Assembly (NCBI GenBank): GCA_048940445.1
Contig: JBHLON010000017.1
Span: forward strand, 1,574 to 65,573
Direction of reading: 5' to 3'
DNA length: 64,000 bases
Source of the DNA: Promethearchaeota archaeon
GTDB lineage: Archaea; Asgardarchaeota; Lokiarchaeia; Sigyniarchaeales; SOKP01
Made by a program: the position numbers and the translations under genes. This document shows positions 14,895 to 63,904 of the stretch, in pieces. The notes beneath the pieces are model-generated. The model had not been told where the DNA came from. It saw only the letters and a list, made by a program, of their open reading frames with translations, and did no database searches. Within the stretch, counting starts at the first letter, position 1; every line of letters begins with the position of its first letter.

Positions 14895-15155
14895 ATGAAT
14901 AAAATTGAACCTAAAAAGTGCTCTGATTTAATGAAAAAACTAATTACTATCTGCCCAGTATGCAAAATGCATATTTATGGAAAGGATATTAACATTTTAA
15001 ACCTCTCTAATATTAAAGCAGATAGCTGGCCGTTAAATTATATCTATTATCATACATATAATGATTATCCTCTTCATTCATTAACACTCTACCTTGATTC
15101 ACACTTTTCTGTTCGAGGATATGAGGTATCTGATAATCTATTAGAAAATAGATAA
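14895..15155 (+). CDS. small CxxC protein (hypothetical)
   Basis: 86-aa ORF with 'CPVCKMH'. No other support. Confidence 0.3.
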   Translation: MNKIEPKKCSDLMKKLITICPVCKMHIYGKDINILNLSNIKADSWPLNYIYYHTYNDYPLHSLTLYLDSHFSVRGYEVSDNLLENR

Positions 15156-20369: not shown

Positions 20370-20408
20370 TAAGATTGATAATTAAGAAAAGTCGAGGAAA
20401 TTTAATTA

Positions 20409-21071
20409 ATGGAAGACGCGAGTCTAGAAAATAGAAAAAGTTCCAAGGATCATTCTCATTACATTAATAGCATCATTGAAGCAGTTAATTCGCTTGATTT
20501 TTATTCGATGAAAGAATCAATAAAACAAGCAATAGATGCAGAAGTACCAGTAATCAATATAGTAAAGAAAGGAATTTTAGAAGGATTGAAAGAATCGGGA
20601 GAGATGGGACTCATTCTAGCTGCAGAAGCTCTTGAAGGCGAAATCCTATGTGTAGATGAGCAAAGGAGAATTAGTTTAGCTGAGACTCGGAATTACTCGG
20701 GAAAGGTAGTTATTGGTACTATTGAAGGTGATATTCATAGTTTGGGAAAAAATATAACAATTGCTTTAATGAAATCATATGGTATGGATATTTTAGACCT
20801 TGGAACAGATGTTAAACCTGAAAGATTTAAAGAAGCAGCTCGGATGCCTGATGTTAAGGTTATTGGTATATCCTTTCTACTTACTTCAGCAGAACCTGCA
20901 ATAAAAAAAGCGTTATCCTTGTTAAAAACTGGAGATATAGCAACAAAGGTTAAAGTAATCTTGGGAGGTGCTGCAGTATCACCTGAAATTGCAGAAGAGA
21001 CAAATGCAGATGCGTATGCTAAAGATGCTTTACAAGGTGTTGATATTATTGATAAATGGTTAAGGAATTAG
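20409..21071 (+). CDS. cobalamin (B12)-binding corrinoid protein, MtaC/MtbC-like
   Basis: 'GTIEGDIHSLGKNI' (DxHxxG), 'ISFLLTS' (SxL) and 'ILGGAA' (GG), plus an N-terminal helical cap. Confidence 0.85.
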   Translation: MEDASLENRKSSKDHSHYINSIIEAVNSLDFYSMKESIKQAIDAEVPVINIVKKGILEGLKESGEMGLILAAEALEGEILCVDEQRRISLAETRNYSGKVVIGTIEGDIHSLGKNITIALMKSYGMDILDLGTDVKPERFKEAARMPDVKVIGISFLLTSAEPAIKKALSLLKTGDIATKVKVILGGAAVSPEIAEETNADAYAKDALQGVDIIDKWLRN

Positions 21072-21136
21072 TATAATTTAATGGATCCTTAAATTTTCTT
21101 TACTTTAATAAATTATGGTATATAAGGTGCTTTTTT

Positions 21137-23143: not shown

Positions 23144-23226
23144 AAAAATTAAATAATTATAAGATTTATTTTTACGTAAGGAATTACTTCTTTACATCAG
23201 TAAAATATTTTTAATAGTATCTCAAA

Positions 23227-25029
23227 ATGAAAATTGCAAAAAGTAAAATTTCAGAGAAAACATCTGGTAACCCTAAATATTCTACTTTTTGGGCTTATAT
23301 ACCAACTTCTATAGTTAAAGACAACGCCTTTCCTTTTAGAGATAAAGAAGAGGTATTGATAGAATTAAAAGGTGAGCGGTTGGAAATTCGAAAGATCTAT
23401 AATTTAAGCGATCTCACTAAAACATATGATATCAAAGCAGCTACATTACCCCAACTTCTAGAAAGTAAAGCATTAGTGAATAAAGACATGCCCTTTATTT
23501 ACTTTCGTGATAAGGTTTATTCTTATTCAGATGCAAATATAATTTCAAATCAAATAGCGAATGGTCTTATAAAGCAAATTAAAAAACTAAAATTAAAAAA
23601 TCCCAATGTTTCTATACTGTTTCCTAATTGTCCAGAAATGCTATTTTGCTGGTTTGCCATAGCAAAAACAGGTAGTGTATTTGTCCCATTAAGTTATTTG
23701 TTAAAGGGAAATTTATTAGATTATGTATTGAGAAACAGTAATTCTGAAATATTGATTATAGATTATAATTATCTTCCTAATTTTAAAGAAATTAATGTAG
23801 TTTTTCCAAAAATTAGGAAAATATTTGTTCATAACGCTCCAAACGACTTTAACTACAACGGTAAGTATGCCAACTTTTCAGAACTTTTATCTGTAGATAT
23901 AGAGAATCCAGAAATTCGAGTCAATAATTTTGATCCTCTTGAAATAGCATACACATCAGGCACAACAGGAAAACCTAAAGGTGTGGTATATAGAAATTAT
24001 TATATATTATCAGGAATTAGTGTAGGGAAACAATTGGAAAGTTTAGGTTTTGGCGAAACCTTAAATAAATTTTATTGTCCATTACCACTATTTCAAGGGT
24101 TAGAACGTTTTTTCTTGATAATACCTATTATGTTTTATAATGGTTCGATTGTCATTGCAGAAAACTTTAATGTTTCAACTTTTTGGAGTGATGTAAAAAA
24201 ATATCAACCTGATGGCTTTTGTTATTATGGTGCTCAATTAACAACATTAGTAAATCAACCGCCATCAAAATTGGATAGAAATCATTCAATAAAATTCGCA
24301 ATTGGTGCTGGAGCTTTAAAGAAGATATGGGAATCGTTTGAAAGAAGATTTGGGATACAATTAATCGAAATGTGGTCTCTTGTTGAGGGTATTGGGTTTA
24401 CTATAAATAATGTTGGTTCTAAAGGAGGAAAACTCGGTTCTATTGGAATACCTGCTCGTGGTGTCGAAATAAAAATCGTTGATTCAGATGGACAAGAGCT
24501 TCCTCCTGGAAGAGACCATATCGGTGAGATTTGTGCAAGAACAAGACTTCCATTTGAACTTGAATATTATAATCTACAAGAGGAGTCAATAACAAGAAAA
24601 GGAGAAGACCGATGGGTTTATACAGGGGATTTTGGTTATATGGACCATCAAAATTACTTATATTACTTAGGAAGGAAATCTGATATGATACGCCGAGGAA
24701 AAGAAACATTTTTTGCAATTGATGTCGAAATAGTAGCGAATTCACATCCACTTATAATTGAAAGCGCCGTTTTTGAAACCTCTGGTGAAGACTCCCAAGA
24801 TAACGACTTAAAAATATGTGCTGTGACTCGCAAAGGGGCTTTAATTACTCATAAGGAGTTTTATAATTATTTACAACAAAATTTAGCCTATTTTATGGTT
24901 CCAAGATACATAGAATTTAAAAAAGACTTACCAAAAAATGCAAATGAATTAATCCAGAAATTCATTCTTATTAACGAATGGCAATCAGGTAAATCATTAA
25001 AAAACACGTATGACATGTTAAAAGACTAA
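23227..25029 (+). CDS. AMP-forming acyl-CoA synthetase/ligase with N-terminal AbrB/SpoVT-like extension
   Basis: 'YTSGTTGKPKGV' AMP-binding motif and 'YTGDFGYMD'. The first ~58 aa ('AYIPTSIVKDNAFPFRDKEEVLIELKGERLEIRK') look like a swapped-hairpin AbrB domain. Confidence 0.8.
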   Translation: MKIAKSKISEKTSGNPKYSTFWAYIPTSIVKDNAFPFRDKEEVLIELKGERLEIRKIYNLSDLTKTYDIKAATLPQLLESKALVNKDMPFIYFRDKVYSYSDANIISNQIANGLIKQIKKLKLKNPNVSILFPNCPEMLFCWFAIAKTGSVFVPLSYLLKGNLLDYVLRNSNSEILIIDYNYLPNFKEINVVFPKIRKIFVHNAPNDFNYNGKYANFSELLSVDIENPEIRVNNFDPLEIAYTSGTTGKPKGVVYRNYYILSGISVGKQLESLGFGETLNKFYCPLPLFQGLERFFLIIPIMFYNGSIVIAENFNVSTFWSDVKKYQPDGFCYYGAQLTTLVNQPPSKLDRNHSIKFAIGAGALKKIWESFERRFGIQLIEMWSLVEGIGFTINNVGSKGGKLGSIGIPARGVEIKIVDSDGQELPPGRDHIGEICARTRLPFELEYYNLQEESITRKGEDRWVYTGDFGYMDHQNYLYYLGRKSDMIRRGKETFFAIDVEIVANSHPLIIESAVFETSGEDSQDNDLKICAVTRKGALITHKEFYNYLQQNLAYFMVPRYIEFKKDLPKNANELIQKFILINEWQSGKSLKNTYDMLKD

Positions 25030-25218: not shown

Positions 25219-25905
25219 TTTATCTTAGGTATCCTAATATTGCAAAAATACTTTAAGTTGCGAGATAAAAATTTGCTTTATATTGGAATCACATGGATAT
25301 TTCTAATTTCTCCATGGTGGCCTGATGCAATTTCTTTCCTATTACTAATCTTTTCAGGAGGAATAATTAATTTGCCTGACCCGATTTACTTTTTTATAGC
25401 AAATGCATTGATAGCCCCCATTTTTTATACATGGGCAAAAGCTTTTACAAACTTAGTAATTTCTAAGAATAAAAAGCTAAAAGTGGTGATTGTAGTAGGT
25501 TTAACAGCGTGGGCAGTCATTTTCGAGATATTCTTCTTGATCTTCTACTTTATGGATTACAATTTGATTGGGATTCGTCAAGCAGTATTTTATGTAGAAT
25601 GGATTGACTTTATTGATATTAATTTATTACTTGCTTCCGTCTTTTTCACTATAACAGGTTTAATTTTTAGTGGAAAAGCGTTAAGATCAGATAGCCCAGA
25701 GATTAAACTAAAGGGTGTATTTCTTTTGATAGCATTTATAACATTTACAATTGGCGCAGTGTTTGATGTGTTATTTGTAGGTCAATATAATGAAGTCACA
25801 TTGATTATCGCAAGAACCTTCGTAATTATAGCTGCCTTTTCATTTTATATCGGCTTTATCCTCCCAAAATTCATAAAAAAAATGATCTTAAAATCAGTTA
25901 ATTAA
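25153..25905 (+). CDS. polytopic (about 7 TM) membrane protein (hypothetical)
   Basis: GTG start, 250 aa, hydrophobic throughout. Confidence 0.55.
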   Translation: MYVLDGLEILQGSLTLAFALISFILGILILQKYFKLRDKNLLYIGITWIFLISPWWPDAISFLLLIFSGGIINLPDPIYFFIANALIAPIFYTWAKAFTNLVISKNKKLKVVIVVGLTAWAVIFEIFFLIFYFMDYNLIGIRQAVFYVEWIDFIDINLLLASVFFTITGLIFSGKALRSDSPEIKLKGVFLLIAFITFTIGAVFDVLFVGQYNEVTLIIARTFVIIAAFSFYIGFILPKFIKKMILKSVN

Positions 25906-39117: not shown

Positions 39118-40158
39118 ATGAAGAATCCGTTTTTAGATTTTTATCACGTTCCTAATTCTAAACAATTATTGGATATTGCATTCAGTAGAGCTATGAAAAG
39201 CTCAGCTCAAGTTTCCAAGAATGCTCCTATTTTAGTAAAAGCAAAAAAAAAAGAATTTAAACGAATAAAAGTAGCGATTAGTGAAATAATTGAGAGAATT
39301 CTTAAAATAATAAAAAGCGTCCCAATAATAGATGAATTACCTGAGTTCTATAAGGAATTAGCTTCATTACTTGTAGATATTGAAAAATTAAAATTAACGT
39401 TGGGTAAATTAAATGGGATTTTACCGATTCTGAGTCAAATTGAACGTTATTATTCTAAACAATTAAATTATATTAATGCCCCGAATGAAGCAGACAAACT
39501 AAGACGGGCTGCTTTTGGAAGGATATCTTCAATTTTAAATAAACAAAACAAAAATCTTGAATATTTGAATACAATTAGAGGGAAGTTACGATCTATACCC
39601 TCAATTGATTACACCCTACCGTGTGTTGTCATCGCTGGTTATCCAAATGTGGGGAAAAGCAGTTTAGTAAAAAATATATCTACTAATAAGAAAATTGAAG
39701 TTCAAGAATACCCCTTCACTACTAAAGAATTAATTATGGGTCATTTAGATATCGTGCGAAAATTTGATAAAATCAAAATTCAATGTTTAGATACACCCGG
39801 TATTTTAGACAGACCTATGATAGAGAGAAATAATATCGAATTACAAGCAATATTAGCTTTAAGACTTATATCAGATTTAATTATTTTTATGTTTGATCCT
39901 ACTCCTGCGTGTGGTTATTCAATCGATTCACAAGTACAATTATTTTATGAAATTAAGAGTAATTTTACACAAAATGAAAAAATTCAAATAAAGATTGTGT
40001 TTAATAAGATGGACCTAGCAAGTCAATCGGAAATTTCAGATTTAGCTCAAAAATTAGGATTGAACAATGAAGAATATCTCCTAACTAATGCAAAAACAGG
40101 TGATAACCTAGATAAATTAATTTCTTTCTTACAGGGTAAATATTCAGGAGAAAACTAA
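39118..40158 (+). CDS. NOG1-family GTPase
   Basis: NOG1-type helical N-domain, G1 'AGYPNVGKSS', G3 'DTPGILDRP' and G4 'NKMD'. Confidence 0.85.
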   Translation: MKNPFLDFYHVPNSKQLLDIAFSRAMKSSAQVSKNAPILVKAKKKEFKRIKVAISEIIERILKIIKSVPIIDELPEFYKELASLLVDIEKLKLTLGKLNGILPILSQIERYYSKQLNYINAPNEADKLRRAAFGRISSILNKQNKNLEYLNTIRGKLRSIPSIDYTLPCVVIAGYPNVGKSSLVKNISTNKKIEVQEYPFTTKELIMGHLDIVRKFDKIKIQCLDTPGILDRPMIERNNIELQAILALRLISDLIIFMFDPTPACGYSIDSQVQLFYEIKSNFTQNEKIQIKIVFNKMDLASQSEISDLAQKLGLNNEEYLLTNAKTGDNLDKLISFLQGKYSGEN

Positions 40159-43381: not shown

Positions 43382-46315
43382 TTGACATCTATTGATTTAG
43401 ACGAAGAGAAAGTAAAGGATTTGATAGCTTGCGGTTCTTATGAAAAAGCCGCTGAGCAAATCTTCCTAATTTTAGAAGAACATGCTAGTTCAGATAAGGA
43501 GTTAATATATAAAACTCTGAGTTTATTAAATTTAATTTGTGATAAATCTCCTTCTATTTCTGAGCGAATAATAAAGATAATAGATTTAATAATAAATGAT
43601 GAGAATTCTTGGATTCGCCTTGTTTGCTTAGAAATTCTTTATCAAATCTCATTATATCGCCCTAATTTATTAATTGATCTTATAGAGAAAATTAAAAATC
43701 GGTTTTATGATCAAGAATCAGCAATTCGAAGATTAGCGGTTAAAATAATTGGTAATTTGATTTTATATTTACATATTGATCGTGAAGAATTATATACGAT
43801 TATTGAAGAATTTACAGAAAAATTAATGGATTCTGATTGGAAAGTTAAATTAGAAGTAATTAAAACAATAAAAAGAATTCTAAACCAAGATTATACAAAG
43901 ATTCGCGACTTAGAACCTTTATTATCAATTGTTATTGTAAATTTGAGAGATGAAGATGATGATGTAGCGCGATCAGCAGCAGAATTGCTCAAAATCCTTG
44001 GGATTTACTTTTTATCTAAAGAAAAGATAATGTATATCCTCTTAAATTTATTATACAATGAAGAATCTCGGGTGAAAGAATTAATCATTTGGTTGTTTGG
44101 AGAAATAGGGAAAGAAAAATCCTCAGAAATAATCCCTATTATTCCAAAATTAATAAATCTGCTCAAAGAAGACAATTATCGTATTCAAATTAAAGTAATC
44201 GATGCACTTGTAAGCATTGCTCAAAATAATTTTGATCAAATTTGGTCAAACTTGATTAATAAGCTATATACGACTAGTGATCTTGACTTTAAAAACATAA
44301 TTATTAATGCTCTTTATCATTTGAGTCAGAATAATATCACAGATATCTTTAATTATGTTTTTGAGGAACTTGAAAACCCATCTGAAGATGTGAGAGACGG
44401 TGTTGCATTGGTTTTTAAGCGATTATTTGAAGAATATCAAGTTGAGATTGAAAATGAGATTACTAAAATCTTATATAGATTAGAATCTAAATATTGGAGA
44501 GAGAGAAAGAAAGCAATAAATTTACTAGGGAATGTTTGTTTCATTTTGGAAAACAAAAAAATAGCAGTTTGGCTTTATGTTGAATTAGAGAAAAGGCTAA
44601 AAATCGAAACTGATCCTGATGTTCAAGAAGAAATCTCATATACATTAAATCATATTAAATTAAATTTTAGTAATATTGATGATATTATACTGAGAGTCAA
44701 TGAAGATTTAGATGACTTTCATAAAACTATTAAAGACTTCCAAAAAATTCCGGCTCAATTTCGTGAAAAAATGAATTCATATATAAAGGAATTCAAATTT
44801 CATGAAACTGAAGTTAAGTTAAATAAAATTTATTCTGATATTCTTAAAAAGATAAAAAAATTTAATAAGAAAATCAATAAATTCGAATATAAGAGATTGG
44901 CATTTAATTTAATTGAAGACTGGCAAGAAACTAAATTGCTTATCATTGATGAGTTAAGTATAGTTAAAGGTTTTATTTCTGAAATATTTGAAGAAAAAAA
45001 AGTAGAATTTACATCAACCCTAAAATCAAAAATTAAAGTTTTGGAGGATCGAATTTCAGTTTTAAATGCGCAGTTTGAAGTAATTAAAAATTATAAATTT
45101 CCAGACAATTTAGATACCATTCTAATGTCTCAAACTCAGGATAAAGATGTGGAGGAACGTCTAACTCAAATTACTCAGTTAAGAAATTATTTATTTAGAC
45201 TCGATGACGATATTAGAGAAATTTTAGTAAATAATGTAGAATTTAATGAAATCTTTAAAGAGTTAGTGAAAAAATGGGTTGAATCAAAAATCCAAATTCA
45301 AGAGTATTTAAGTGAATTAGATAAGAAAATAAAGCAAATAAAAGATAAAATTGTGGATTATTTTGTAGAAACAACCAAAGGAGATAAACAAGAATTAAAG
45401 GTTAATGGAATCCAAAATGAATTAGGATTTCAATTATTTCAGGGACATATTCAATCAATAATAACTCAAGGTATTGAAGGTTTTAAGAAGTTTAACGAGG
45501 ATTTTGATAAACTAAATTCAAACTTAAATACATTAATCCAAAAAAGTGAATTTGGTGATGCAATTAAATTAATTGAAATGAATTCGAAGCAAATCCAAAA
45601 TTTTATCGAAAATTATGAAGATCAGATTGATAATATCATTGGAAAAGTTGGAGAAGAGAAAAATGATATTTTTAATTTATATATTAGGCCTTTTATTACA
45701 AAATTTGTATCGGCAAAAGAGTTGTTGATTAATAAATTAAAAAACTTTTCAGAAAAAGGTACTAACAAAATCTATTTGAACCAGATTAAATATTATTTAG
45801 AAGTAATTAATCCAATAAATTTAGAAAGTCTTGCATCATATCTAGAATTAGATACTGAATATTTGAAGGAATTAATTTTCAATTTCATCCATAAAGGTAA
45901 ATTAAATGCCAAAATAGTAAATGATAACCTATATTCTCCAAGAAGTGAAGATGATTTTATAGAGGCAAAGGATCTCCTCTTTTTTAAAAATATAAAAACA
46001 ATAGGTAATAAAATGAATTTAAACTTTAAATTAAATAATCCTACCAATTTCGATTTTCGAGAAATTCAAATTTCACTAAAAATCCCATCTTATCTAACTT
46101 TTATTATGAAAGAAAGCTTTCCAAGCTATTTATATCTAAATGAATTAAAGTCTGGAAGTGTTTTTAAATTCAATTATGTTCTTAAGATTAATCGTAATAT
46201 TGAAAAAAATATAGCAGATCCAACTGTGGATGAGATAACTCTTAATTTATTTTATAAAGATCCATTTGATATTCAACGAAAAACAACTAAAAAAATTGAT
46301 CTGCTCCTACCTTGA
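43382..46315 (+). CDS. HEAT-repeat protein with central coiled coil, PCI-like winged helix and C-terminal beta-rich domain (hypothetical)
   Basis: 977 aa, TTG start. At least 7 HEAT-like units in residues ~60-420 ('IRRLAVKIIGNL', 'WKVKLEVIKTIKRIL', 'VARSAAELL', 'YRIQIKVIDALVSIA', 'VRDGVALVFKRL', 'WRERKKAINLLGNV'). WH-like 'INLESLASYLELDTEYLKELIFNFIHKGKLNAKIVND' at nt ~45790-45940. Confidence 0.55.
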   Translation: MTSIDLDEEKVKDLIACGSYEKAAEQIFLILEEHASSDKELIYKTLSLLNLICDKSPSISERIIKIIDLIINDENSWIRLVCLEILYQISLYRPNLLIDLIEKIKNRFYDQESAIRRLAVKIIGNLILYLHIDREELYTIIEEFTEKLMDSDWKVKLEVIKTIKRILNQDYTKIRDLEPLLSIVIVNLRDEDDDVARSAAELLKILGIYFLSKEKIMYILLNLLYNEESRVKELIIWLFGEIGKEKSSEIIPIIPKLINLLKEDNYRIQIKVIDALVSIAQNNFDQIWSNLINKLYTTSDLDFKNIIINALYHLSQNNITDIFNYVFEELENPSEDVRDGVALVFKRLFEEYQVEIENEITKILYRLESKYWRERKKAINLLGNVCFILENKKIAVWLYVELEKRLKIETDPDVQEEISYTLNHIKLNFSNIDDIILRVNEDLDDFHKTIKDFQKIPAQFREKMNSYIKEFKFHETEVKLNKIYSDILKKIKKFNKKINKFEYKRLAFNLIEDWQETKLLIIDELSIVKGFISEIFEEKKVEFTSTLKSKIKVLEDRISVLNAQFEVIKNYKFPDNLDTILMSQTQDKDVEERLTQITQLRNYLFRLDDDIREILVNNVEFNEIFKELVKKWVESKIQIQEYLSELDKKIKQIKDKIVDYFVETTKGDKQELKVNGIQNELGFQLFQGHIQSIITQGIEGFKKFNEDFDKLNSNLNTLIQKSEFGDAIKLIEMNSKQIQNFIENYEDQIDNIIGKVGEEKNDIFNLYIRPFITKFVSAKELLINKLKNFSEKGTNKIYLNQIKYYLEVINPINLESLASYLELDTEYLKELIFNFIHKGKLNAKIVNDNLYSPRSEDDFIEAKDLLFFKNIKTIGNKMNLNFKLNNPTNFDFREIQISLKIPSYLTFIMKESFPSYLYLNELKSGSVFKFNYVLKINRNIEKNIADPTVDEITLNLFYKDPFDIQRKTTKKIDLLLP

Positions 46316-46668: not shown

Positions 46669-46888
46669 TAAATTTCATCTTTATTCACTTACTAATAACA
46701 AATAATTATGTTAACAAAAATTTATATTCCATTTCATATTAAAAATATTTTTTATCGAAATATTAAATAAATCTATCGAAGAAATAAATCAATTAATAAG
46801 TGATAATTAATTTTGAAATACGATAATTTAAAATCTATTACAAACTAGGAGTTATACCAAATTATCTGAATAAAAGATGAGGTGAAAG

Positions 46889-47917
46889 ATGGAAAAAAAT
46901 AAAGAATATAGACTTACAGCTCAAGTAAAAATTCATGGATGATCATGTAAACTATCCTCAGACAATTTAGAAAATTTATTACGAAACGCTGGTCTTCGGG
47001 GAGATTTTGAGGATGCTGCAGTAATCACTATTCCTAATAGTGACATAGTATTAGTAAAAAATTTGGACGTATTTACTCCAATCGTAGATGAACCTGAGAT
47101 TATGGGTGAAATTGCCGCATGTAATGTGACAAATGACATTTTTGCTATGAATGTACCTGAGATCTCTGGAATGTTAGTCTTTTTAGCTATTAATACAAAT
47201 ACTCCTCTGGAAATTGCTGAAGGAATATTAGTCGGTATAAGAAATTTTATGGAAAGAAAACTGAATTCTCGTATAGTAGGAGGGCATACAATTTACTCAG
47301 AATGGCCATTAATAGGAGGAGAAGCTTCGGGGTTTGTCAAACGAGATCAAATAATTTGGAAACAAGGTGTTAAAAACGGTGATAAACTGATTTTAACCAA
47401 ACCAGTTGGATTGCAAGGGATCATGGCAGCATACAGAATCTTAAAGGACTTCCCAGATATGTTAGAAAACTATTCCAAAAAGGAATTAATAAAGTCTATT
47501 AATTTTGCGATTGAACTGATGACTACTCCGAATCAAAATGTAGTAAAGATAATTCATTCTCATCCAGACTTTTCCTTTATACATTCAATGTCGGATGTGA
47601 CTGGGTTTGGATTAGCTGGTCATACAAAAGAAATGCTACAGAATTCAAAATTATCCGCAATTATTGAAAAGATTCCTTCGATAAAGTTATCCCAAGAACT
47701 ATCAAGTGAGCTAGGTTATGCGTTTGACGATTGCACTTGCCATGAAACCGCTGGTGGATTATTAATCGCTATAGATCCAAATAAGGCAGAAGAATTTTCA
47801 AATACTCTCCTAGATGGTGGTGTTAAAAATTGGATTATCGGAAGAATTGATTCAAATAAACCAGGAATCGTGAAAATTGCCAAAAATGTAGAAATCATCG
47901 AAATTAATGAGAGTTAG
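46889..47917 (+). CDS. selD: selenide, water dikinase (selenophosphate synthetase) with in-frame UGA (Sec) at codon 18
   Basis: The listed ORF 47063-47917 carries 'DVFTPIVDEPEIMGEIAACNVTNDIFAM', 'RIVGGHT' and similar motifs. The same frame extends upstream to ATG 46889 (GAGGTGA SD at 46879-46885) through one TGA at 46940-46942. That gives MEKNKEYRLTAQVKIHG-U-SCKLSSDNLENLL, matching the E. coli 'LTQYSHGAGCGCK' region with U at the Cys17 position. Confidence 0.85.
46940..46942 (+). other. UGA selenocysteine codon in selD
   Basis: It is the only stop in an otherwise continuous 342-codon SelD frame. It lies in the glycine-rich N-terminal loop where SelD orthologs carry Cys or Sec. Confidence 0.75.
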
Positions 47918-47918
47918 A

Positions 47919-47971
47919 GGTGCGATGATATAAGCAAAAAGACCCTATGGAAAGTGCTTATTGAGAGCTCC
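47919..47971 (+). promoter_or_regulatory. candidate SECIS element (eukaryote-like kink-turn layout) in the selD 3' UTR
   Basis: Helix I GGUGC (47919-23) / GCUCC (47967-71). Core AUGA (47925-28) faces UGAG (47962-65). Helix II AUAAGCA (47930-36) / UGCUUAU (47955-61). The 18-nt apical loop begins AAAA (47937-40). Confidence 0.5.
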
Positions 47972-48000
47972 ACTTGCAAAGTGGCATCTATAATTATATT

Positions 48001-48795
48001 TTATTCTTTAATTTTTCCGTTTAAATTTAACACAATAGTTTTAGCTTCATTAAGTGCTTTTTCAACTATTTCATCTCCATTTTCAACATTGAAGCAAGTA
48101 ATAGAAATCTCAACTTCTACAGATAACCCAATCCGTGGATGAGTTTTTATCCAGAGTTGTGGAAACTTTTCTTCAAGTCTAGTCATATAAGGAGCAATCT
48201 GACTTTCTCCAATACCAGAGAAAGCAAAATGTTTCTCTATAAATTTACCTTCTTGTTCTTTTAAAATAGGCACAATAATATTTCTAAACATCGCTTTCAT
48301 TTCAGCAGGTACACCAGGTAGTATGAAAAGAGTCGTATTTCCTTCAGATAATTTGACTCCAGGAGCTGTACCAACTGTATTTGGTAATGGAATTGAGCCG
48401 TGGGGAATAATGGCCATCTTTTCACGCTCTTTAGTCATTCCTTCCAGTTTTAAAATTCCTTTATGATATGCATTATCATATGCCTTCTTTATTGAATTAT
48501 AAGCATGTTGATTTAACTCTAAATTTCTGTTTAAGCCTTTCGCAACTCCATTTAAGGTTACGTCATCAAATGTTGGTCCTAAACCTCCAGAAGTGATGAC
48601 TATGTCTGGTTTACGTTTTAAAATATCCTGTAGTGTATCTGATATTAAGTCTACTTCGTCGCCTATAGTTATTATTCTCCTAACTTTATGACCATATTTT
48701 GTAATCCTTTTTACCATCCAATAAGAGTTAGTATCTTGAGTTTTACCAATTAAAATTTCATTGCCTATTACTAAAATTTCAATCTCCATTATCAT
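48001..48795 (-). CDS. CinA-like / MoCF-biosynthesis-domain protein
   Basis: 'IEILVIGNEILIGKTQDTNSYWM' and 'VITSGGLGPTFDDVT'. Confidence 0.8.
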   Translation of the reverse strand: MIMEIEILVIGNEILIGKTQDTNSYWMVKRITKYGHKVRRIITIGDEVDLISDTLQDILKRKPDIVITSGGLGPTFDDVTLNGVAKGLNRNLELNQHAYNSIKKAYDNAYHKGILKLEGMTKEREKMAIIPHGSIPLPNTVGTAPGVKLSEGNTTLFILPGVPAEMKAMFRNIIVPILKEQEGKFIEKHFAFSGIGESQIAPYMTRLEEKFPQLWIKTHPRIGLSVEVEISITCFNVENGDEIVEKALNEAKTIVLNLNGKIKE

Positions 48796-48899
48796 TCAAG
48801 ATTTTCGTATTAAGATTTTTTCACTAGAATTATAATCTTTTAAATAATTCTCAATACAATAATATTATTATCATTTTGGATAGATTTACTTTATTATAA

Positions 48900-50279
48900 A
48901 TGGGTTCCTTCATGGATAAAAATAAAGAAAAAGCCCCATCATCTACATTCCGTGCCATATGGCTCTTATATTTGACTCTCTTTTACTGCACAGGAGTTTT
49001 GACAGCTAATGTGGAAAATTTATTATCATTTTTATTTGGTACTACTGAATTTGGTATAGGATTCTCAATTGCAATGTTTTATATAGTTTGTATAATAAGT
49101 TCATTATTCTTTGGTTATTTTTGTGATAAAATATCAAAAAAAATTCCTCGCAAATGGTTATTTTTTCTAACTAATAGTATTTGGATTCTCGGTTATGGAC
49201 TTGCTTCATTAGCTATCAATTATTATTTTTATTTAACGTATATATGTATCGCCGCAATTGGATCCGGAGCATTTTTACCAATAGGTTATTCAATTATTGG
49301 AGATTTTTACCCCCCTAAAGATAGAGCTAAGAAATATGGAATGATGCAGGTTAGTATAGCTTTAGGTATTGGTATTGGGGTGATTCTTGGTGGAATTTTG
49401 GGGAGTTATCTAAGAGCTATAGGATGGAGATATGCTTATGGAGTTGGCTTTATTCTTGGTTTAATTTCATTATTACTATTTGGAGTAAAAGGTGTTAATC
49501 CTAAAAGAGCTAGTAGCGAACCTGAATTTGAAGATCTACAAGGCTCAATTGAATATGATTACAAAATAACTTTGGATAATTTGTTCTCTCTCTTTAAAAA
49601 AAAATCAATTTTGAGCGTCTTGCTTTATGTATTGTGTCAAGGTATAGCGATTTCCACGATTGCTTTATGGGGGATTTTTTATTTGGAAATGAAGATCACT
49701 ATTAGCGGATCACAATTATATGCTTCAATTCTTTATTTAATATCTGGTGCGGGAGGTTTACCAGGAGTCATTATTGGGGGGAGATTGGGTGATAAATACT
49801 ATAATTTAGGCAAATTAAGAGGGCGTGTTATTATTTCCTTTATTGGAGTTATCTTGGGGTCACTATTCCTTTTAGGTTTTTACTTATTACCATTTTTCAC
49901 AGGAAATCTAACTGAGGTTATATTCTCTTGGATACTTTTCATATTTTTAGGTTTTATGGGATATTTTTTTATAAATTTATCTATAGGAAATCAATTCGCA
50001 ATTTACTCAGAAGTGTGTACACCTGAAGTGAGAAACACTGCAAATGCATTTAATAGTGTGATGGTTAACATTGGAGCTATTATTGGAAATCTCGTTTTGT
50101 CATCATTAATTCAGCAAAATATTTTACTATTGCCTTTTTCATATTCACTCGTATTGTTGATAAATCTGTTTGGGGCTGCATTTTGGATAATAACTTATTT
50201 TTATTATCCCCAAGAGGCTGAAGAGTTTAGAGAATTAATGAGAAAAAGAAGATTAGAAATTGAAGACAAAAATAAATGA
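48900..50279 (+). CDS. MFS transporter
   Basis: About 12 TM helices. Motif-A-like 'GYFCDKISKKIPRKW' and 'GGRLGDKY'. Confidence 0.8.
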   Translation: MGSFMDKNKEKAPSSTFRAIWLLYLTLFYCTGVLTANVENLLSFLFGTTEFGIGFSIAMFYIVCIISSLFFGYFCDKISKKIPRKWLFFLTNSIWILGYGLASLAINYYFYLTYICIAAIGSGAFLPIGYSIIGDFYPPKDRAKKYGMMQVSIALGIGIGVILGGILGSYLRAIGWRYAYGVGFILGLISLLLFGVKGVNPKRASSEPEFEDLQGSIEYDYKITLDNLFSLFKKKSILSVLLYVLCQGIAISTIALWGIFYLEMKITISGSQLYASILYLISGAGGLPGVIIGGRLGDKYYNLGKLRGRVIISFIGVILGSLFLLGFYLLPFFTGNLTEVIFSWILFIFLGFMGYFFINLSIGNQFAIYSEVCTPEVRNTANAFNSVMVNIGAIIGNLVLSSLIQQNILLLPFSYSLVLLINLFGAAFWIITYFYYPQEAEEFRELMRKRRLEIEDKNK

Positions 50280-50349
50280 TTCTTCTTCAAAAAATTGAAA
50301 ACTAATAATACTTTTAAAATAATAATTACAAGTTCTGAATTAAACCAAA

Positions 50350-50892
50350 ATGACAATTGAAATTGATGACGCTGGAACAGGAGATATAGTAGGGGATGCT
50401 TTTATTGGTTTATTAAAAAAAGAAACCGGAGAACTAGTATTCAAGACACTTCCAGTAGAGTTGTTTCAAAATGACAATTGGAAAAACAAATTACCATATA
50501 AAAGGACAGTAGAATTAGTAAAAGATGGACTATATGAATTGAACTTTAAGAAGGAAGAAGAAAAAATTAGAATATGTCGCGGAAACATCTTTGATGAAGT
50601 AAGAGCTTATTTTGATGAAGAAGGTATTATCTATGAAAATTCAACTATTGAAGGCACCCTTCAAGATGCTATCGAAAATAGATTGATTTCACATCTAAAG
50701 AATGATTTAGGAATAAAATCGAAAAAACTAAATAAAGAAAGCGGCATAAAAAGATACTTTATATTATATAATTGGGTTTGTTATAATTTCTATAAAAGAG
50801 AAAAATATGTAAAATCCGGGTTTAAAAAATGGAATACGATTTGGAGAGAGAGAGCAATTAAAAAATATAAAAAGCTTAAAGAAAAAATGTAA
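50350..50892 (+). CDS. hypothetical protein (N-terminal 'EIDDAGTGDIVG' RNase-H-fold-like motif)
   Basis: 180-aa ORF. The motif only loosely recalls RNase HII 'IDEAGRGPxxG'. Function unknown. Confidence 0.4.
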   Translation: MTIEIDDAGTGDIVGDAFIGLLKKETGELVFKTLPVELFQNDNWKNKLPYKRTVELVKDGLYELNFKKEEEKIRICRGNIFDEVRAYFDEEGIIYENSTIEGTLQDAIENRLISHLKNDLGIKSKKLNKESGIKRYFILYNWVCYNFYKREKYVKSGFKKWNTIWRERAIKKYKKLKEKM

Positions 50893-50906
50893 GAATTTAG
50901 TTGGTT

Positions 50907-52595
50907 TTAGCTTCTTAATTTTTTTTTCTTGATTAAAACATAACTAAAACTGATAGTTGAAACTGAAATTAATATTCCCCCAGGAATAACCATTCCAAGT
51001 TCTATCGAATTAGCAAATGAAGTTGAATCTGTCGGTAACTCCATCTCTTCTTGAGCTAAAAATGGCATTACATTGTCTCTAAAGTTTGGTAGCCAACTCA
51101 AGATCATTTCCATTGCTTTGTCTTCCAATGAATTAACAATTTGAACATTTTCTGCAACTGTTGAAGTTGGATTATTAATTGCTATATACCATTTCCTCAA
51201 TCCTTCATCATTTACTAAGGAATACTCATTTGAGGCATCCCAAAGTGATTCAACTGATTCTAATGAAGCATTTGATGGTAATATTGGCAAATTTTTACCT
51301 TGGTACCCTATTTCAAATCCATAGATTATGCCTGCTTTTAAAGGTAATGGAAAACCATAAGGAAATATAACTTCACCCAGTGCTGTGCCATTTGCCCACT
51401 GTTCTAATAATAAAACTCTCGCAAATTTGGTAATATTCATACCTACACCATCTGGTGGAGGGAGTATCATAAGTTCTGGGACTACATTATCTTGAAATGA
51501 TTCCTCGAATAACCAGAAAAGAATCATATCTAGTTGAGATTCAGTTAAATTAAAGTCATTCATTAATATTATCTTTACCGTATCATTTGAAGATGCAGCT
51601 ATCCATTTATTAATTCCAGTATCATTTGTTAGTGCATTAGGATAATTTATTTCATCAAATAGTGCATAAGCAGAACTTCGAGTGATATTTGAGGGATGAA
51701 TACGACCTACTTCAAAACCAACCACCGTTGTATTTATAAGCTCAAGCATGTCACTAAAATCGATCCCTCCTTCATATATCACCTCATTCAATACCGTTCC
51801 ATTTGCCCATTGTTCCATAAACAAAGCTTTAGCAATAGCATTCACTGAGAGGAGTCCTGCTAGTTGTGGCATATACTCTACATGTAAATTATTTGCAATG
51901 ATTATTGGGATTACAAGTTCAATTAAGTAATTGATAACGTACTCATATACTTTTGTTAATTGATACCATGTACAATTAAAGCTTTCTTGCATTGTTTCAT
52001 TTAGCAAACTAGTTCCACTTGAATTGGCTATAGAATATTGAATTAAAAAGTTAGTTACACCTTCACCAGTTGAAGTATCATTAAGTAAACCTGAAATACC
52101 AAATATATGACCAGAGGTTGTTGTACTATTGCCATACAAAATCCTATTTTGTGCATCATCTGTAAAATTAAGAGGCTCACCATGGTAAGCCGAAATACCA
52201 CTAAATATAACCCAAACACCAGTTGTATCATTATTGAAGAACCTTTCTTTTCCTATAGGTGCATAAAAAGTACTAAAAACTTCACCACCTGTGTTAACGA
52301 ATGTATTAATTAATACTGAAACAAATGTTGCTTCAACCATATCTTCAAGAATAGGAATTCCTAAATCTCTTATTCCTCTAAGTGTTTGGGGGATACCTTT
52401 CTCTTTAATCATCGGTTCAATTAATGGGATCGCTTCTTCTTCAATACCTAAAAGAGCTTCATCAACAGAATTAAAAACCTTCTCATTAATATAATCCTCT
52501 ATCAAAATTCCTCCAGAAATCAAACCTGAGCCAACTGCAAGCAGTATTACAGAAATAAATATAATCTTTTTGGACATTATTTTATCCCTGACCAT
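50907..52595 (-). CDS. large extracellular protein with N- and C-terminal membrane anchors (hypothetical)
   Basis: 562 aa. Internal duplication ('FMEQWANGTVLNEVIYEGG' / 'LLEQWANGTALGEVIFPYG'), many N-x-S/T sequons, and C-terminal 'IPGG' + TM + KKKKLRS. Confidence 0.55.
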   Translation of the reverse strand: MVRDKIMSKKIIFISVILLAVGSGLISGGILIEDYINEKVFNSVDEALLGIEEEAIPLIEPMIKEKGIPQTLRGIRDLGIPILEDMVEATFVSVLINTFVNTGGEVFSTFYAPIGKERFFNNDTTGVWVIFSGISAYHGEPLNFTDDAQNRILYGNSTTTSGHIFGISGLLNDTSTGEGVTNFLIQYSIANSSGTSLLNETMQESFNCTWYQLTKVYEYVINYLIELVIPIIIANNLHVEYMPQLAGLLSVNAIAKALFMEQWANGTVLNEVIYEGGIDFSDMLELINTTVVGFEVGRIHPSNITRSSAYALFDEINYPNALTNDTGINKWIAASSNDTVKIILMNDFNLTESQLDMILFWLFEESFQDNVVPELMILPPPDGVGMNITKFARVLLLEQWANGTALGEVIFPYGFPLPLKAGIIYGFEIGYQGKNLPILPSNASLESVESLWDASNEYSLVNDEGLRKWYIAINNPTSTVAENVQIVNSLEDKAMEMILSWLPNFRDNVMPFLAQEEMELPTDSTSFANSIELGMVIPGGILISVSTISFSYVLIKKKKLRS

Positions 52596-60094: not shown

Positions 60095-60496
60095 ATGAGA
60101 AAGGAACGGTTAAATAAGAAGTTCTTGACTGAATTCCAACAATCGAATTTTTCTCGTATTAAGGAAGAAAAAATCTATTTAGTAGGTTCTGCCCGTTTTA
60201 AACATTATTTTCTAGAAATCAAATCAATATTACAAATAAATTATAATAAACTCGTTACCATTTGTTCATTTGACTGGTTATTAAATAAAAAGAAATTTTC
60301 AAAAGAAGAATGGGAAAAATTACAATTAATTGCATTAAAAAAATTGCATTATCAAGATGCTGTATTAGTTTTGGACATAAATGGTTATTTTGGGGGTCAT
60401 ACAAAAGGAGAAATCGAACACTTTAACAATAACTTAAAGAAGAAAATCTATTTTTTATCTGAGTTATTGAAAAAATTAAAAAAAATTGAATTATGA
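60095..60496 (+). CDS. small protein with DUF4406 / nucleoside 2-deoxyribosyltransferase-like pattern (hypothetical)
   Basis: 133 aa. 'KIYLVGSARF' ... 'QDAVLVLDINGYFGGHTKGEIEHF' mirrors the 'KIYIxGP ... CDAVxxLpGWexSxGaxxE' pattern. Divergent from the MTase with a 38-bp spacer. Confidence 0.4.
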   Translation: MRKERLNKKFLTEFQQSNFSRIKEEKIYLVGSARFKHYFLEIKSILQINYNKLVTICSFDWLLNKKKFSKEEWEKLQLIALKKLHYQDAVLVLDINGYFGGHTKGEIEHFNNNLKKKIYFLSELLKKLKKIEL

Positions 60497-63400
60497 TTTT
60501 ATTGTTCTTTTAATAACGATTCCAATCAATAGTAATGAAACACCAATCAATAAAAGGACGTTATAACCTGGTATTCCTGGAGGCACTTCTGGAGCATTCT
60601 TTATCACTTCTACCTCTCGGTACTGAATATTTCCAGCGTGATCACTTGCATAAAATCTAATAGTTATTGCTCCATATGGGGCATTATTCCATACAGCAGA
60701 ATCAATAGAACCAATCAATTGAGATATTGTGATGTTGATAAACCCATCATCTAATGTATACCAAATTTGATCTAGATTAGATTCAACCACTGTTATATTA
60801 TATGATGGAGGTAAACCTGTAAACTGCTGTCCGGCTATTGGAGAATTTATCATAACAACAGGTGAGATTGTGTCCTTCATTATAGTGACCTCATCAAAAT
60901 CTTCCTGATCAACTATATCTCTGGCATAGAATCTAATAGTAACAGGACCATCTGGCAATGAATTCCATGCTGTAAAGTTAATTGTTCCAGTAGTTTCTAT
61001 AAATTGAATGTCAGTTCCTCCATTTAATGTATACCATGATGATACTAAATTTGTCGCTGTAATTGAAAGGATAAAAGAAGGAGGATCACTGAAGTATTGA
61101 CCTGCAGTAGGCGAGACTATTGAGACTTGTGGCGGAAGAATACCAATAGTAAAGTATCTTATATCTGAAGTATACATTGTCCCCAAAGTATTGTTTCCGA
61201 ATATCTGAATATTGTGATAGCCATTATTAGGCATTGAGATTGTTGAATTACCCATTATTGTCTTATATGCGGATCCATCTAAAGAATAACCAATCCAATC
61301 CAAAGTAATATGCTTCTCAAAATTGAGCAATAATCCCTCATTAAGATTGATTCCGATACTATAATATGGATCCCAGGAATATCCAAATGCATCATAATAG
61401 GCTAAGCTGGTATTTTCAAGATCATTAGATGCAAGTCTGATTTCTCCGATTGCTGTGGCTACAAGTCTGAAATTATAAGGGCCATATTTAACATCATTAA
61501 TCCAAATAAAAAAGGTGTCTGCAGATAATCCCATATACCCTCCACCTCCACATTCAAAGTCGATCCTTACATGATACCACGTATTATCTAACGCAGGACA
61601 GATGTTTGCAAATTGATAACTTGGCTGACGGTATTGAAAATGATCCTCACCAATTCTAACAAAAATTCTAGCTTCGGAACCTTGATAAAGATTAAGCGCA
61701 CTTACTAATGATGCATCTGGAGTGTAGATCCAATATTCTATGGAGCCAGCTTGTTGATTTGAACCAAATTGATTGAAAAAATCATATCGTCCACTTAAAT
61801 TCGTGTCAGTTAGTTGCAAAATTTGTTTGTGATTATCAATCTCATCAAAAATTTCAGCTGTACATCCTGAAGAACTATTAGAAGAATCTATAAATGCAAT
61901 ATTTTGATCAGTCGTTCCAATTTCGTCATTTTCAAACCCATATGTTGCGGGATAATATCCATTCATGGGGGATGTATATGTTGTATTTGCTGGAGTTATA
62001 ATATTAATATATTGAATATTAATAGTAAAGTATCTTATATCTGAAGTATACATTGTCCCCAAAGTATCATTTCCAAATATTTGAATATTGTGATAGCCAT
62101 TATTAGGCATTGAGATTGTTGAATTACCCATTATTGTCTTATATGCGGATCCATCTAAAGAATAACCAATCCAATCCAAAGTAATATGCTTCTCAAAATT
62201 GAGCAATAATCCCTCATTAAGATTGATTCCGATACTATAATATGGATCCCAGGAATATCCAAATGCATCATAATAGGCTAAGCTGGTATTTTCAAGATCA
62301 TTAGATGCAAGTCTGATTTCTCCGATTGCTGTGGCTACAAGTCTGAAATTATAAGGGCCATATTTAACATCATTAATCCAAATAAAAAAGGTGTCTGCAG
62401 ATAATCCCATATACCCTCCACCTCCACATTCAAAGTCGATCCTTACATGATACCACGTATTATCTAACGCAGGACAGATGTTTGCAAATTGATAACTTGG
62501 CTGACGGTATTGAAAATGATCCTCACCAATTCTAACAAAAATTCTAGCTTCGGAACCTTGATAAAGATTAAGCGCACTTACTAATGATGCATCTGGAGTG
62601 TAGATCCAATATTCTATGGAGCCAGCTTGTTGATTTGAACCAAATTGATTGAAAAAATCATATCGTCCACTTAAATTCGTGTCAGTTAGTTGCAAAATTT
62701 GTTTGTGATTATCAATCTCATCAAAAATTTCAGCTGTACATCCTGAAGAACTATTAGAAGAATCTATAAATGCAATATTTTGATCAGTCGTTCCAATTTC
62801 GTCATTTTCAAACCCATATGTTGCGGGATAATATCCACTCATGAGAGAGGTATAGGTTGTATTTGCTGGAGTTATAATATTAATATATTGAATATTAATA
62901 GTAAAATGTCTTATGTCTGAAGCAAATGTTGTTCCTAAAGTATCATTTCCAATTATCTGAATGTTATGATGGCCATTATTAGGCATTGAGAGCGTTGAAT
63001 TACCCAATATTGTCCTATTCGCGGATCCATCTAAAGAATAGCCAATCCAATCTAGTGAGGTATTGTTTTCAAAACTGAGCAATAATCCCACATTAAGATT
63101 CTCTCCGATGCTATAATATGGATCCCATGAATATCCAATTGCATCATAATAAGCTAAGCTAGTATCTTGAAATTCATTTGACGCAAGTCTGAGTTCCTCG
63201 ATTGCTGTGGCTGTAAGCCTGAAATTATAAGGACCATATTTAACATCATTAATCCAAATAAAAAAGGTGTCTGCAGATAATCCCATATACCCTCCACTAC
63301 TACATTCAAAGTCGATCCTTACATGATACCACGTATTATCTAACGCAGGACAGATGTTTGCAAATTGATAACTTGGCTGACGGTATTGAAAATGATCCTC

Positions 63401-63904
63401 ACCAATTCTAACAAAAATTCTAGCTTCGGAACCTTGATAAAGATTAAGCGCACTTACTAATGATGCATCTGGAGTGTAGATCCAATATTCTATGGAGCCA
63501 GCTTGTTGATTTGAACCAAATTGATTGAAAAAATCATATCGTCCACTTAAATTCGTGTCAGTTAGTTGCAAAATTTGTTTGTGATTATCAATCTCATCAA
63601 AAATTTCAGCTGTACATCCTGAAGAACTATTAGAAGAATCTATAAATGCAATATTTTGATCAGTCGTTCCAATTTCGTCATTTTCAAACCCATATGTTGC
63701 GGGAAAATATCCACTCATGGAAGATGTATATGTGACATTATCAGGAGAAATTATAATAATTTCATTAGCATTTGATTTTGGGAATTTGTATTTATTATTT
63801 TGAACTATTTTAGTTGAGCAGAGAAATCGAGTCGAATAGAAACCCGCAAATAGAGCTAGAAACAAAAGAAGAATTAAAATTCGGGAAGTATTAATCTTTT
63901 TCAA
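60491..63904 (-). CDS. giant cell-surface protein: 3 x (LamG/jelly-roll-like + Ig-like) modules + 2 Ig-like domains + 'IPGY' C-terminal anchor
   Basis: 1137 aa. N-terminal signal/anchor. Three ~292-aa repeats. Two ~90-aa related domains ('WYTLNGG...IRFYARD' / 'WYTLDDG...IRFYASD'). Ends 'GIPGYNVLLLIGVSLLLIGIVIKRTIKS'. Many N-x-S/T sequons. Confidence 0.7.
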   Translation of the reverse strand: MKKINTSRILILLLFLALFAGFYSTRFLCSTKIVQNNKYKFPKSNANEIIIISPDNVTYTSSMSGYFPATYGFENDEIGTTDQNIAFIDSSNSSSGCTAEIFDEIDNHKQILQLTDTNLSGRYDFFNQFGSNQQAGSIEYWIYTPDASLVSALNLYQGSEARIFVRIGEDHFQYRQPSYQFANICPALDNTWYHVRIDFECSSGGYMGLSADTFFIWINDVKYGPYNFRLTATAIEELRLASNEFQDTSLAYYDAIGYSWDPYYSIGENLNVGLLLSFENNTSLDWIGYSLDGSANRTILGNSTLSMPNNGHHNIQIIGNDTLGTTFASDIRHFTINIQYINIITPANTTYTSLMSGYYPATYGFENDEIGTTDQNIAFIDSSNSSSGCTAEIFDEIDNHKQILQLTDTNLSGRYDFFNQFGSNQQAGSIEYWIYTPDASLVSALNLYQGSEARIFVRIGEDHFQYRQPSYQFANICPALDNTWYHVRIDFECGGGGYMGLSADTFFIWINDVKYGPYNFRLVATAIGEIRLASNDLENTSLAYYDAFGYSWDPYYSIGINLNEGLLLNFEKHITLDWIGYSLDGSAYKTIMGNSTISMPNNGYHNIQIFGNDTLGTMYTSDIRYFTINIQYINIITPANTTYTSPMNGYYPATYGFENDEIGTTDQNIAFIDSSNSSSGCTAEIFDEIDNHKQILQLTDTNLSGRYDFFNQFGSNQQAGSIEYWIYTPDASLVSALNLYQGSEARIFVRIGEDHFQYRQPSYQFANICPALDNTWYHVRIDFECGGGGYMGLSADTFFIWINDVKYGPYNFRLVATAIGEIRLASNDLENTSLAYYDAFGYSWDPYYSIGINLNEGLLLNFEKHITLDWIGYSLDGSAYKTIMGNSTISMPNNGYHNIQIFGNNTLGTMYTSDIRYFTIGILPPQVSIVSPTAGQYFSDPPSFILSITATNLVSSWYTLNGGTDIQFIETTGTINFTAWNSLPDGPVTIRFYARDIVDQEDFDEVTIMKDTISPVVMINSPIAGQQFTGLPPSYNITVVESNLDQIWYTLDDGFINITISQLIGSIDSAVWNNAPYGAITIRFYASDHAGNIQYREVEVIKNAPEVPPGIPGYNVLLLIGVSLLLIGIVIKRTIKS
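61146..63773. repeat. 3 x 876-bp in-frame tandem repeat inside the surface-protein gene
   Basis: Landmarks recur at exactly 876-bp spacing (CTGAAG at 61165/62041/62917; TTTCGTCA at 61921/62797/63673). The two lower-coordinate copies differ at only a handful of positions by eye. Confidence 0.85.

Follow-up and report, generated by a model that had tools for sequence, protein, structure and literature searches.

A selD gene from an Asgard archaeon, very probably decoded with selenocysteine through a kink-turn SECIS element in its 3'UTR

Based on its sequence, the region 46889-47917 of the window (the window being the whole stretch of 64,000 nucleotides that was analysed) is a selD gene encoding selenophosphate synthetase, and codon 18 of this gene is UGA. 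We consider it very probable that this UGA is decoded as selenocysteine (Sec) and that the decoding is served by a kink-turn (K-turn) SECIS element located in the 3'UTR. A Sec-containing SelD with a special SECIS in Lokiarchaeia/Asgard archaea was published in 2016 and 2024. In view of these descriptions of Asgard selD (PMC4989117 and PMC11227280), the present result is a correct re-discovery in one more genome. The gene and the open reading frames (ORFs) overlapping it are located as follows.

46889..47917, + strand: complete coding sequence of selD (selenide, water dikinase), 342 codons when the predicted Sec18 is counted, stop codon TAG
46879..46885, + strand: Shine-Dalgarno-like GAGGTGA, with a 3-nt spacer before the selD ATG, read directly
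46940..46942, + strand: UGA, the putative Sec codon 18, in the loop G17-U18-S19-C20-K21 (46937-46951), placed by homologue alignment and conservation
47063..47917, + strand: truncated 284-aa ORF with a TTG start, from the mechanical ORF list, without the catalytic loop
46933..47139, - strand: antisense 68-aa ORF over the 5' part of selD, from the mechanical ORF list; spurious

The selD frame runs from the ATG at 46889 to the TAG at 47915-47917, and its sole in-frame stop is the TGA at 46940-46942, around which the translation reads MEKNKEYRLTAQVKIHG*SCKLSS.... The N-terminus of the protein can be regarded as fixed, because an in-frame stop is located directly upstream of the ATG and the Shine-Dalgarno-like motif precedes it. 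Among 76 related selD copies, no fewer than 46 have a motif of the AGGTG/GGTGA type 6-11 nt 5' of the start; the choice of the start in these copies was crude, so that the count is a lower bound. A previous sequence-only reading had described the ATG at 46889 as preceded by a Shine-Dalgarno motif, the TGA as the single interruption of the frame and the ORF track as giving only the C-terminal 284 aa together with an antisense ORF, and had expected gene callers to truncate the gene. All of this agrees with the sequence as read directly and with the mechanical ORF list, in which only the 284-aa tail of SelD appears. The 284-aa ORF is an annotation artefact of ordinary gene calling. The 68-aa antisense ORF falls wholly within conserved selD coding sequence, and a look-up of recorded proteins for its product returned none. 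The practical value of the result is thus that of annotation repair, as gene callers leave a catalytically dead 284-aa fragment and a spurious antisense ORF. The corrected selD marks the organism as a selenium user.

The protein profile and homology tests were run with Cys substituted for U18. The product reached 297.8 bits with NF010705, the NCBIfam SelD equivalog (cutoff 291, residues 3-339), and 190 bits with TIGR00476 (cutoff 125). It also contained the AIRS N-terminal domain PF00586 (46.4 bits) and the AIRS_C domain PF02769 (56.5 bits), which upholds the earlier assignment of the gene to SelD. About 335 residues, covering the PurM-like two-domain fold, align to the human SPS1 and Leishmania SPS2 chains. 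These two are the best relatives with solved structures, followed by the SelD proteins of A. aeolicus and E. coli. All of the Asp/Asn motifs (EDAAV, NLDVF, N..NDIFAM and SDVTGFG) are aligned with SelD homologues: D42, D60, N79 and D83 find their counterparts in E. coli DDAAV, TTDFF and N..SDIFAM, and SDVTGFG corresponds to human TDITGFG. In E. coli SelD, we take the ATP/metal-binding residues to be D51, D68, N87, D91 and D227.

In residue-by-residue SelD alignments, codon 18 faces Cys17 of E. coli SelD (HG-U18-S-C20-K21 against G-C17-G-C19-K20, in GAG-C-GCK). Its counterpart is likewise Cys in the SelD chains of A. aeolicus and Leishmania, but Thr in human SPS1 (KG-T-GCK); the neighbouring Cys20-Lys21 is aligned too. 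Therefore, the TGA is situated exactly at the catalytic Sec/Cys position. The sequence-only reading had placed it at the equivalent of E. coli Cys17 and had proposed an alignment with SelD/SPS2 orthologs as a check; once run, this alignment put the TGA inside the conserved loop. Sec or Cys occupies the same loop position in bacterial SelD, as in the Sec-containing protein of Haemophilus influenzae and in the Aquifex aeolicus structure 2yye.

To assess the conservation of the UGA, 52 related selD loci from a species-representative genome set were compared. Their protein identity was 60-79%, with 77-79% for the closest copies. All but one of the loci (51/52; the exception is L048) came from MAGs labelled Asgard or 'uncultured archaeon', mostly Promethearchaeota/Promethearchaeia and some Hod-, Hermod-, Thor- and Odin-. 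Plain translation without a motif filter revealed an in-frame stop at the homologous site in 52/52 loci, in the context YRLT..VKI[HFY]G*[SN]CK. The G, C and K of the catalytic loop were kept in all displayed related copies. A motif search yielded 78 selD copies, the window's own included, and the stop was TGA in each of them. An exact-pattern metagenome scan across the UGA gave a sole match, the orthologue of another species in a JGI metagenome (L055), and it has TGA too. Consequently, TGA occupies codon 18 in 79/79 copies, and a Cys codon in none. Since the TGA is conserved in all relatives, it is neither a matter of chance nor an error of one sequence.

The same data bear on the suggestion that a true TGT/TGC was turned into TGA by faulty sequencing or assembly. 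Among the assemblies looked up, there was no independent same-strain sequence over the UGA; neither the 284-aa fragment nor the antisense ORF nor the 977-aa protein encoded upstream led to one. However, the same codon is TGA in 78 further copies, orthologous or paralogous, that were assembled independently, and selD is followed by a matching SECIS, which is base-for-base identical in the independent assembly L053 (Logan SRR34261206; 99.8% identity over 47491-51661 of the window). We consider the chance of such an error negligible.

The related copies were also compared with the window by codon position. The fractions of differing sites at positions 1/2/3 were 0.37/0.18/0.49 for the 12 codons 5' of the UGA and 0.45/0.16/0.53 for the 12 codons 3' of it. 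Because the coding pattern is alike on both sides, the piece upstream of the UGA is translated in the selD frame; the upstream extension, claimed earlier from the open frame, is genuine coding sequence. This is of importance for another explanation, according to which the UGA is a true stop, so that selD is a pseudogene or that only the C-terminal 284-aa fragment is produced from an internal start. Standard gene calling does yield this fragment, but it has no catalytic Sec/Cys-x-Cys-Lys loop. Moreover, the 17 codons upstream of the UGA are conserved at the protein level with a coding substitution pattern; the start codon, the Shine-Dalgarno-like motif and the upstream in-frame stop are all present; the full-length frame scores above the SelD equivalog cutoff; and a SECIS is present. 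True termination at codon 18 is thus highly improbable, and we retain the full-length frame.

It is also conceivable that UGA has been reassigned as a sense codon throughout the genome. TGA is a rare stop in the 64-kb window: 47 ORFs reach a length of 150 aa or more, and 4 of them end with it. Nevertheless, these four TGAs close well-defined ORFs, including that of a 489-aa DAO/BFD protein whose end overlaps the ATG of the next gene, and a scan of TGA-containing open frames in the window gave no other convincing TGA-interrupted gene. Given that TGA otherwise serves as a regular stop in the window, the UGA of selD represents a site-specific recoding, and we assign next to no probability to reassignment. 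The window has a G+C content of approximately 29-30%, and its other genes include those for a NOG1 GTPase and for gelsolin-repeat, RING-finger and HEAT/adaptin-like proteins. These features and the labels of the related loci assign it to a Lokiarchaeia-type Asgard archaeon, whose own selD stretch is not among the 52 loci returned.

The selD stop is separated by 83 nt from a convergent gene, which encodes a MoCF-biosynthesis-domain protein (PF00994, MoaB/CinA-like; 48001-48795), and this spacer is strikingly conserved among the relatives. The predicted SECIS fills this spacer, and its parts are listed below.

47918..47989, + strand: complete SECIS, type II eukaryote-like, on a three-way junction, predicted from the RNAalifold consensus, covariation and a covariance model
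47918..47922, + strand: lower stem 5' strand AGGUG, pairing with CAUCU at 47985-47989
47923..47928, + strand: 5' side of the K-turn core, namely C47923, the bulge G-A-U (47924-47926), and G47927 and A47928 of AUGA
47929..47962, + strand: upper stem (47929-47935 with 47956-47962) and apical part
47963..47965, + strand: 3' side of the K-turn core, with G47963 and A47964 as the sheared partners of A47928 and G47927, and G47965 as the partner of C47923
47970..47984, + strand: side hairpin CCACU-UGCAA-AGUGG, flanked by the 3' strands of the K-turn and of the lower stem

Based on an alignment of 69 selD 3'UTRs, RNAalifold predicted the lower stem, the upper stem, the apical ministem and the side hairpin, with at least one compensatory change in every predicted pair. 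When all 23 pairs of the structure were taken together, 93.1% of the cells were paired, against 31-52% when the partners were slid by 1-3 columns. Double changes were observed in 22 of the 23 pairs, and none of 500 shuffles reached the observed values. A covariance model (R1) built from 68 relatives, with the window left out, matched at 47915-47998 of the + strand, starting from the selD stop codon, with 62.7 bits and E=1.7e-13. This was its one significant match in the 64 kb, the runner-up having E=0.45. The single-sequence fold of the 3'UTR (z = -0.4) is uninformative alone, and the structure becomes visible by comparison only.

The bacterial SECIS takes the form of a hairpin within the coding region, directly behind the UGA. 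The sequence directly 3' of the selD UGA was considered as an element of this type and rejected, as its fold is not more stable than that of shuffled sequence (z = +0.9). The Rfam SECIS families gave no match in the window at either the gathering or the E<=10 threshold. This was to be expected, since the standard SECIS tools also miss the element of the Loki-like SPS (PMC4989117). A scan of the window with a loose AUGA-stem-GA pattern and with R1 gave no convincing SECIS besides that of selD; the pattern matches at 14895-14934 and 25840-25874 are weak, and the ORFs preceding them have no in-frame TGA. In four related loci (L019, L031, L033 and one L045 copy), selD is followed by a simpler element of type I.

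The AUGA of the core occupies 47925-47928, starting 8 nt after the TAG, and the GA lies at 47963-47964. Below the core, columns 7-11/77-81 of the alignment, which form the lower stem, were 94.7% paired, and the pair 7-81 alternated between CG (22), UA (21) and AU (11). In the C-stem, columns 13-57 were represented by CG in 52 sequences, UA in 15 and UG in 1, and columns 12-58 by UA in 63 and AU in 3, with 99.3% pairing. The window's own C-stem is reduced to 1 bp (C47923-G47965) and is weaker than the family consensus. The bulge corresponds to columns 14-16. It is followed by the tandem G.A/A.G, in which G17/A18 stand opposite A56/G54, all invariant or nearly so: in the 69 sequences, the G and A of AUGA are invariant, and on the 3' side the A never varies and the G hardly ever does.

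The upper stem (columns 19-25/47-53) was 92% paired with double changes in 7/7 pairs; in the window, its 7 positions comprise 6 Watson-Crick pairs and one U.U. Then follows an A-rich bulge, AAAAA, at 47936-47940. The ministem (columns 31-34/40-43) was 90% paired and has 3-4 bp in the family consensus. In the window, its two outer pairs are non-canonical, leaving a weak ministem of 2 bp (CC/GG, 47943-47944 with 47949-47950) under the apical loop CUAU. The side hairpin (columns 62-67/72-76) was 92.9% paired, all of its 5 pairs were double-changed, and the pair 64-74 was GC in 33 sequences and AU in 27.

The covariation of the C-stem, together with the 3-nt bulge, the G.A/A.G tandem and the NC stem, defines a canonical kink-turn at the sequence level, so that at this level the SECIS core is a canonical kink-turn on a three-way junction. 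Such an arrangement is reminiscent of the k-junction motif (PMC4005666). We propose only tentatively, and with considerable doubt, that the selD-specific Asgard SECIS goes beyond a short type II hairpin of the eukaryote-like kind and is k-junction-like, i.e., a canonical K-turn in a three-way junction with a conserved 5-bp side hairpin bearing a GNRA-like cap. The side hairpin, the three-way junction and the covarying C-stem have no description in the main text of PMC4989117 or PMC11227280, as far as the portions used here extend. If the proposal is true, a three-way-junction SECIS could provide selD with a handle of its own for recognition or regulation, e.g., for priority or feedback control of a selenoprotein that is required for making all the others. 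The covariation-backed picture of the selD SECIS (K-turn C-stem, three-way junction and side hairpin) is the sole increment over the published descriptions. The refined picture suggests concrete mutations for a Methanococcus reporter system.

Based on the above results and on established Sec decoding, we suggest the following course of events. Translation would start at 46889, and the ribosome would pass the UGA at codon 18 without terminating because of the SECIS, which follows the TAG at a distance of 8-75 nt and thus lies roughly 1 kb 3' of the UGA. The K-turn SECIS may recruit EFSec carrying Sec-tRNA(Sec), either directly or through some adaptor; Asgard archaea are not known to have a homologue of SBP2 (PMC4989117, PMC11227280). 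Sec-tRNA(Sec) would be made via SerRS, PSTK and SepSecS, using SelD's own product. The insertion of Sec at codon 18 would yield the loop G-U-S-C-K. In this flexible N-terminal loop, Sec18 and Lys21 are likely to take part in selenide binding and phosphoryl transfer, and the loop would serve ATP-dependent selenophosphate synthesis.

The 64-kb window contains one tRNA (Pro) and no tRNA-Sec, and no EFSec, PSTK or SepSecS was detected among the 40 window ORFs scanned with Pfam. The 52 related loci likewise yielded no tRNA gene at all. This lack of Sec machinery in the window would suit an explanation in which the UGA is read through without Sec, either by a near-cognate tRNA (Cys/Trp) or as a relic turning to the Cys form. 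In addition, a few Asgard genomes are reported to have Sec-type homologues with little or no machinery, which may reflect incomplete assemblies (PMC11227280). Against such read-through, the SECIS is intact, as judged by its 62.7-bit match, its compensatory evolution is ongoing across the relatives, and all 79 copies have TGA with no Cys codon. A covarying SECIS that is maintained speaks for Sec decoding, as it would be lost otherwise. Read-through without Sec is therefore improbable in our estimation, although less so than the other explanations weighed above. Sec decoding by this organism is supported by the SECIS, by the conservation of the UGA and by the published surveys of Asgard genomes, and the claim of the sequence-only reading that selD is itself a selenoprotein gene is supported to this extent by the TGA at the catalytic site (79/79) and the SECIS in the 3'UTR. 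In these surveys, 85.9% of Lokiarchaeia/Helarchaeales genomes carry the Sec trait, and more than 90% of the Asgard archaea that use Sec have SelD as a selenoprotein (PMC11227280).

The window's selD shares with eukaryotic SEPHS2/SPS2 the predicted Sec, a SECIS in the 3'UTR, the AUGA/GA kink-turn core, the unpaired adenines and the ministem, whereas its SECIS differs in lying at most 10 nt from the stop codon and in having a side hairpin. The upper stem of eukaryotic type II SECIS comprises about 12-14 bp, compared with 7 in the window. The SelD of Methanococcales/Methanopyrus is likewise archaeal, with Sec at the homologous site and a SECIS in the 3'UTR. However, the euryarchaeal SECIS is a two-stem hairpin that is rich in GC and carries a GAA_A bulge (PMC4989117), unlike the kink-turn AUGA...GA core of the window.

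Mariotti et al. (2016) described a Loki-like SPS whose frame contains a single UGA, located where Sec is expected. Its lokiSECIS is located directly after the stop and has AUGA...GA; the stem is followed by adenines, the main stem is shorter, and there is an additional stem at the apex (PMC4989117). The window shares with that description the archaeal-type SelD, the UGA site and the type II-like post-stop SECIS, but it belongs to a different species. The combination of an Asgard selD with a kink-turn SECIS is a proposed link between archaeal and eukaryotic Sec decoding, a point already made in the literature.

Huang, Xiao and Zhang (2024) surveyed more than 400 Asgard genomes, in which SelD was the most widespread selenoprotein. 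The SECIS of Asgard SelD was mostly type II eSECIS-like, and multiple copies were noted in Loki/Thor genomes (PMC11227280). The type II model given there consists of a GA_[G/A]A core, an upper stem of 7-15 bp with no more than 2 mismatches, a bulge of 4-12 nt, a ministem of 2-8 bp and an apical loop of 2-6 nt. The SECIS of the window agrees with every numeric value of this model: its AAAAAGA bulge, its ministem of 2 bp (the minimum) and its CUAU loop all fall within the type II ranges. Its lower stem, GGUG/CAUC in the window and GAUG/CAUC in the consensus, is near the published G[A/U]G_C[U/A]C, although the correspondence is inexact (PMC11227280). As for the number of copies, a second, tandem selD copy was found in 26 of the 52 related loci, and the window has a single copy at the locus.

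Within the selD SECIS, the type II element in the 3′UTR of the gene, the 3′ half houses a side hairpin that is conserved and strongly covarying. Its loops in the alignment of 69 selD 3′UTRs are UGCRA or GNRA-like.

Window 47970-47984 (+), columns 62-76 of the alignment: side hairpin

Given this position inside the 3′ half, a three-way junction is formed adjoining the kink-turn. The hairpin is absent from the accessible text of both papers on Asgard SECIS elements, Mariotti et al. 2016 (PMC4989117) and Huang et al. 2024 (PMC11227280).

For four selD copies among the related loci, the element after the gene is not the type II form with the side hairpin. It is instead lokiSECIS-like and of type I, consisting of AUGA, a 9-nt stem, an 11-nt A-rich loop and GA/AA.

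L019:4027-4110: type I element 3′ of selD
L031, past the stop ending at 2131: type I element 3′ of selD
L033:4027-4110: type I element 3′ of selD
L045, past the stop ending at 4026: type I element 3′ of selD

These elements suggest SECIS swapping among selenoprotein genes.

The selD of the window is a single copy, whereas half of the related loci (26 of 52) carry two tandem same-strand paralogues separated by roughly 0.2-1.9 kb (L006-L015, L020-L029, L032, L038, L039, L043-L046 and L052). In these loci, the main copy shares about 66-72% identity with the SelD protein of the window and the extra copy about 59-66%. Each tandem copy has its own UGA, and every copy complete within its locus has its own 3′UTR SECIS. 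Multiple selD genes in Loki/Thor genomes were described by Huang et al. 2024 (PMC11227280).

Two loci are labelled as other lineages, 'Candidatus Nanopelagicaceae bacterium' (L048, DATKTW010000110.1) and 'Odinarchaeota' (L001, JBHLPZ010000030.1), yet in both the selD is Loki-type and its UGA stands in the Asgard context; the two contigs are probably mis-binned or mislabelled.

Directly upstream of the selD start and in frame with it lies a three-codon mini-frame, ATG AGG TGA (window 46877-46885, +), which overlaps the SD-like motif of selD and is probably incidental. Its TGA delimits the SelD N-terminus. A Logan contig (L053, SRR34261206_46449) was 99.8% identical to window 47491-51661, the two differing over 4171 nt by 7 substitutions and 1 gap. 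The contig represents a near-identical strain and comes from an independent assembly of a public read set, SRR34261206, against whose reads the selD UGA could be checked.

The window also contains four signature genes that are eukaryote-like and of a kind typical of Asgard archaea, the last of them directly 5′ of selD.

9785-10798 (-): gelsolin-repeat protein
15159-17189 (-): RING-finger protein
39118-40158 (+): NOG1-type GTPase
43382-46315 (+): HEAT/adaptin-N-like protein, 977 aa

A further gene cluster resembles a maintenance module for corrinoid-dependent methyltransferases, RACo being the reductive activator of corrinoid proteins.

19584-25029 (+): DUF2284 (metal-binding), B12-binding-domain protein, RACo and AMP-binding enzyme

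One long ORF had no Pfam match.

60491-63904 (-): ORF of 1137 aa with three tandem repeats

The repeat units, each 876 nt (292 aa), start at 61138, 62014 and 62890; copies 2 and 3 are 98% and 83% identical to copy 1, respectively. Three weak, evenly spaced matches to the SECIS RNA model arise from these repeats.
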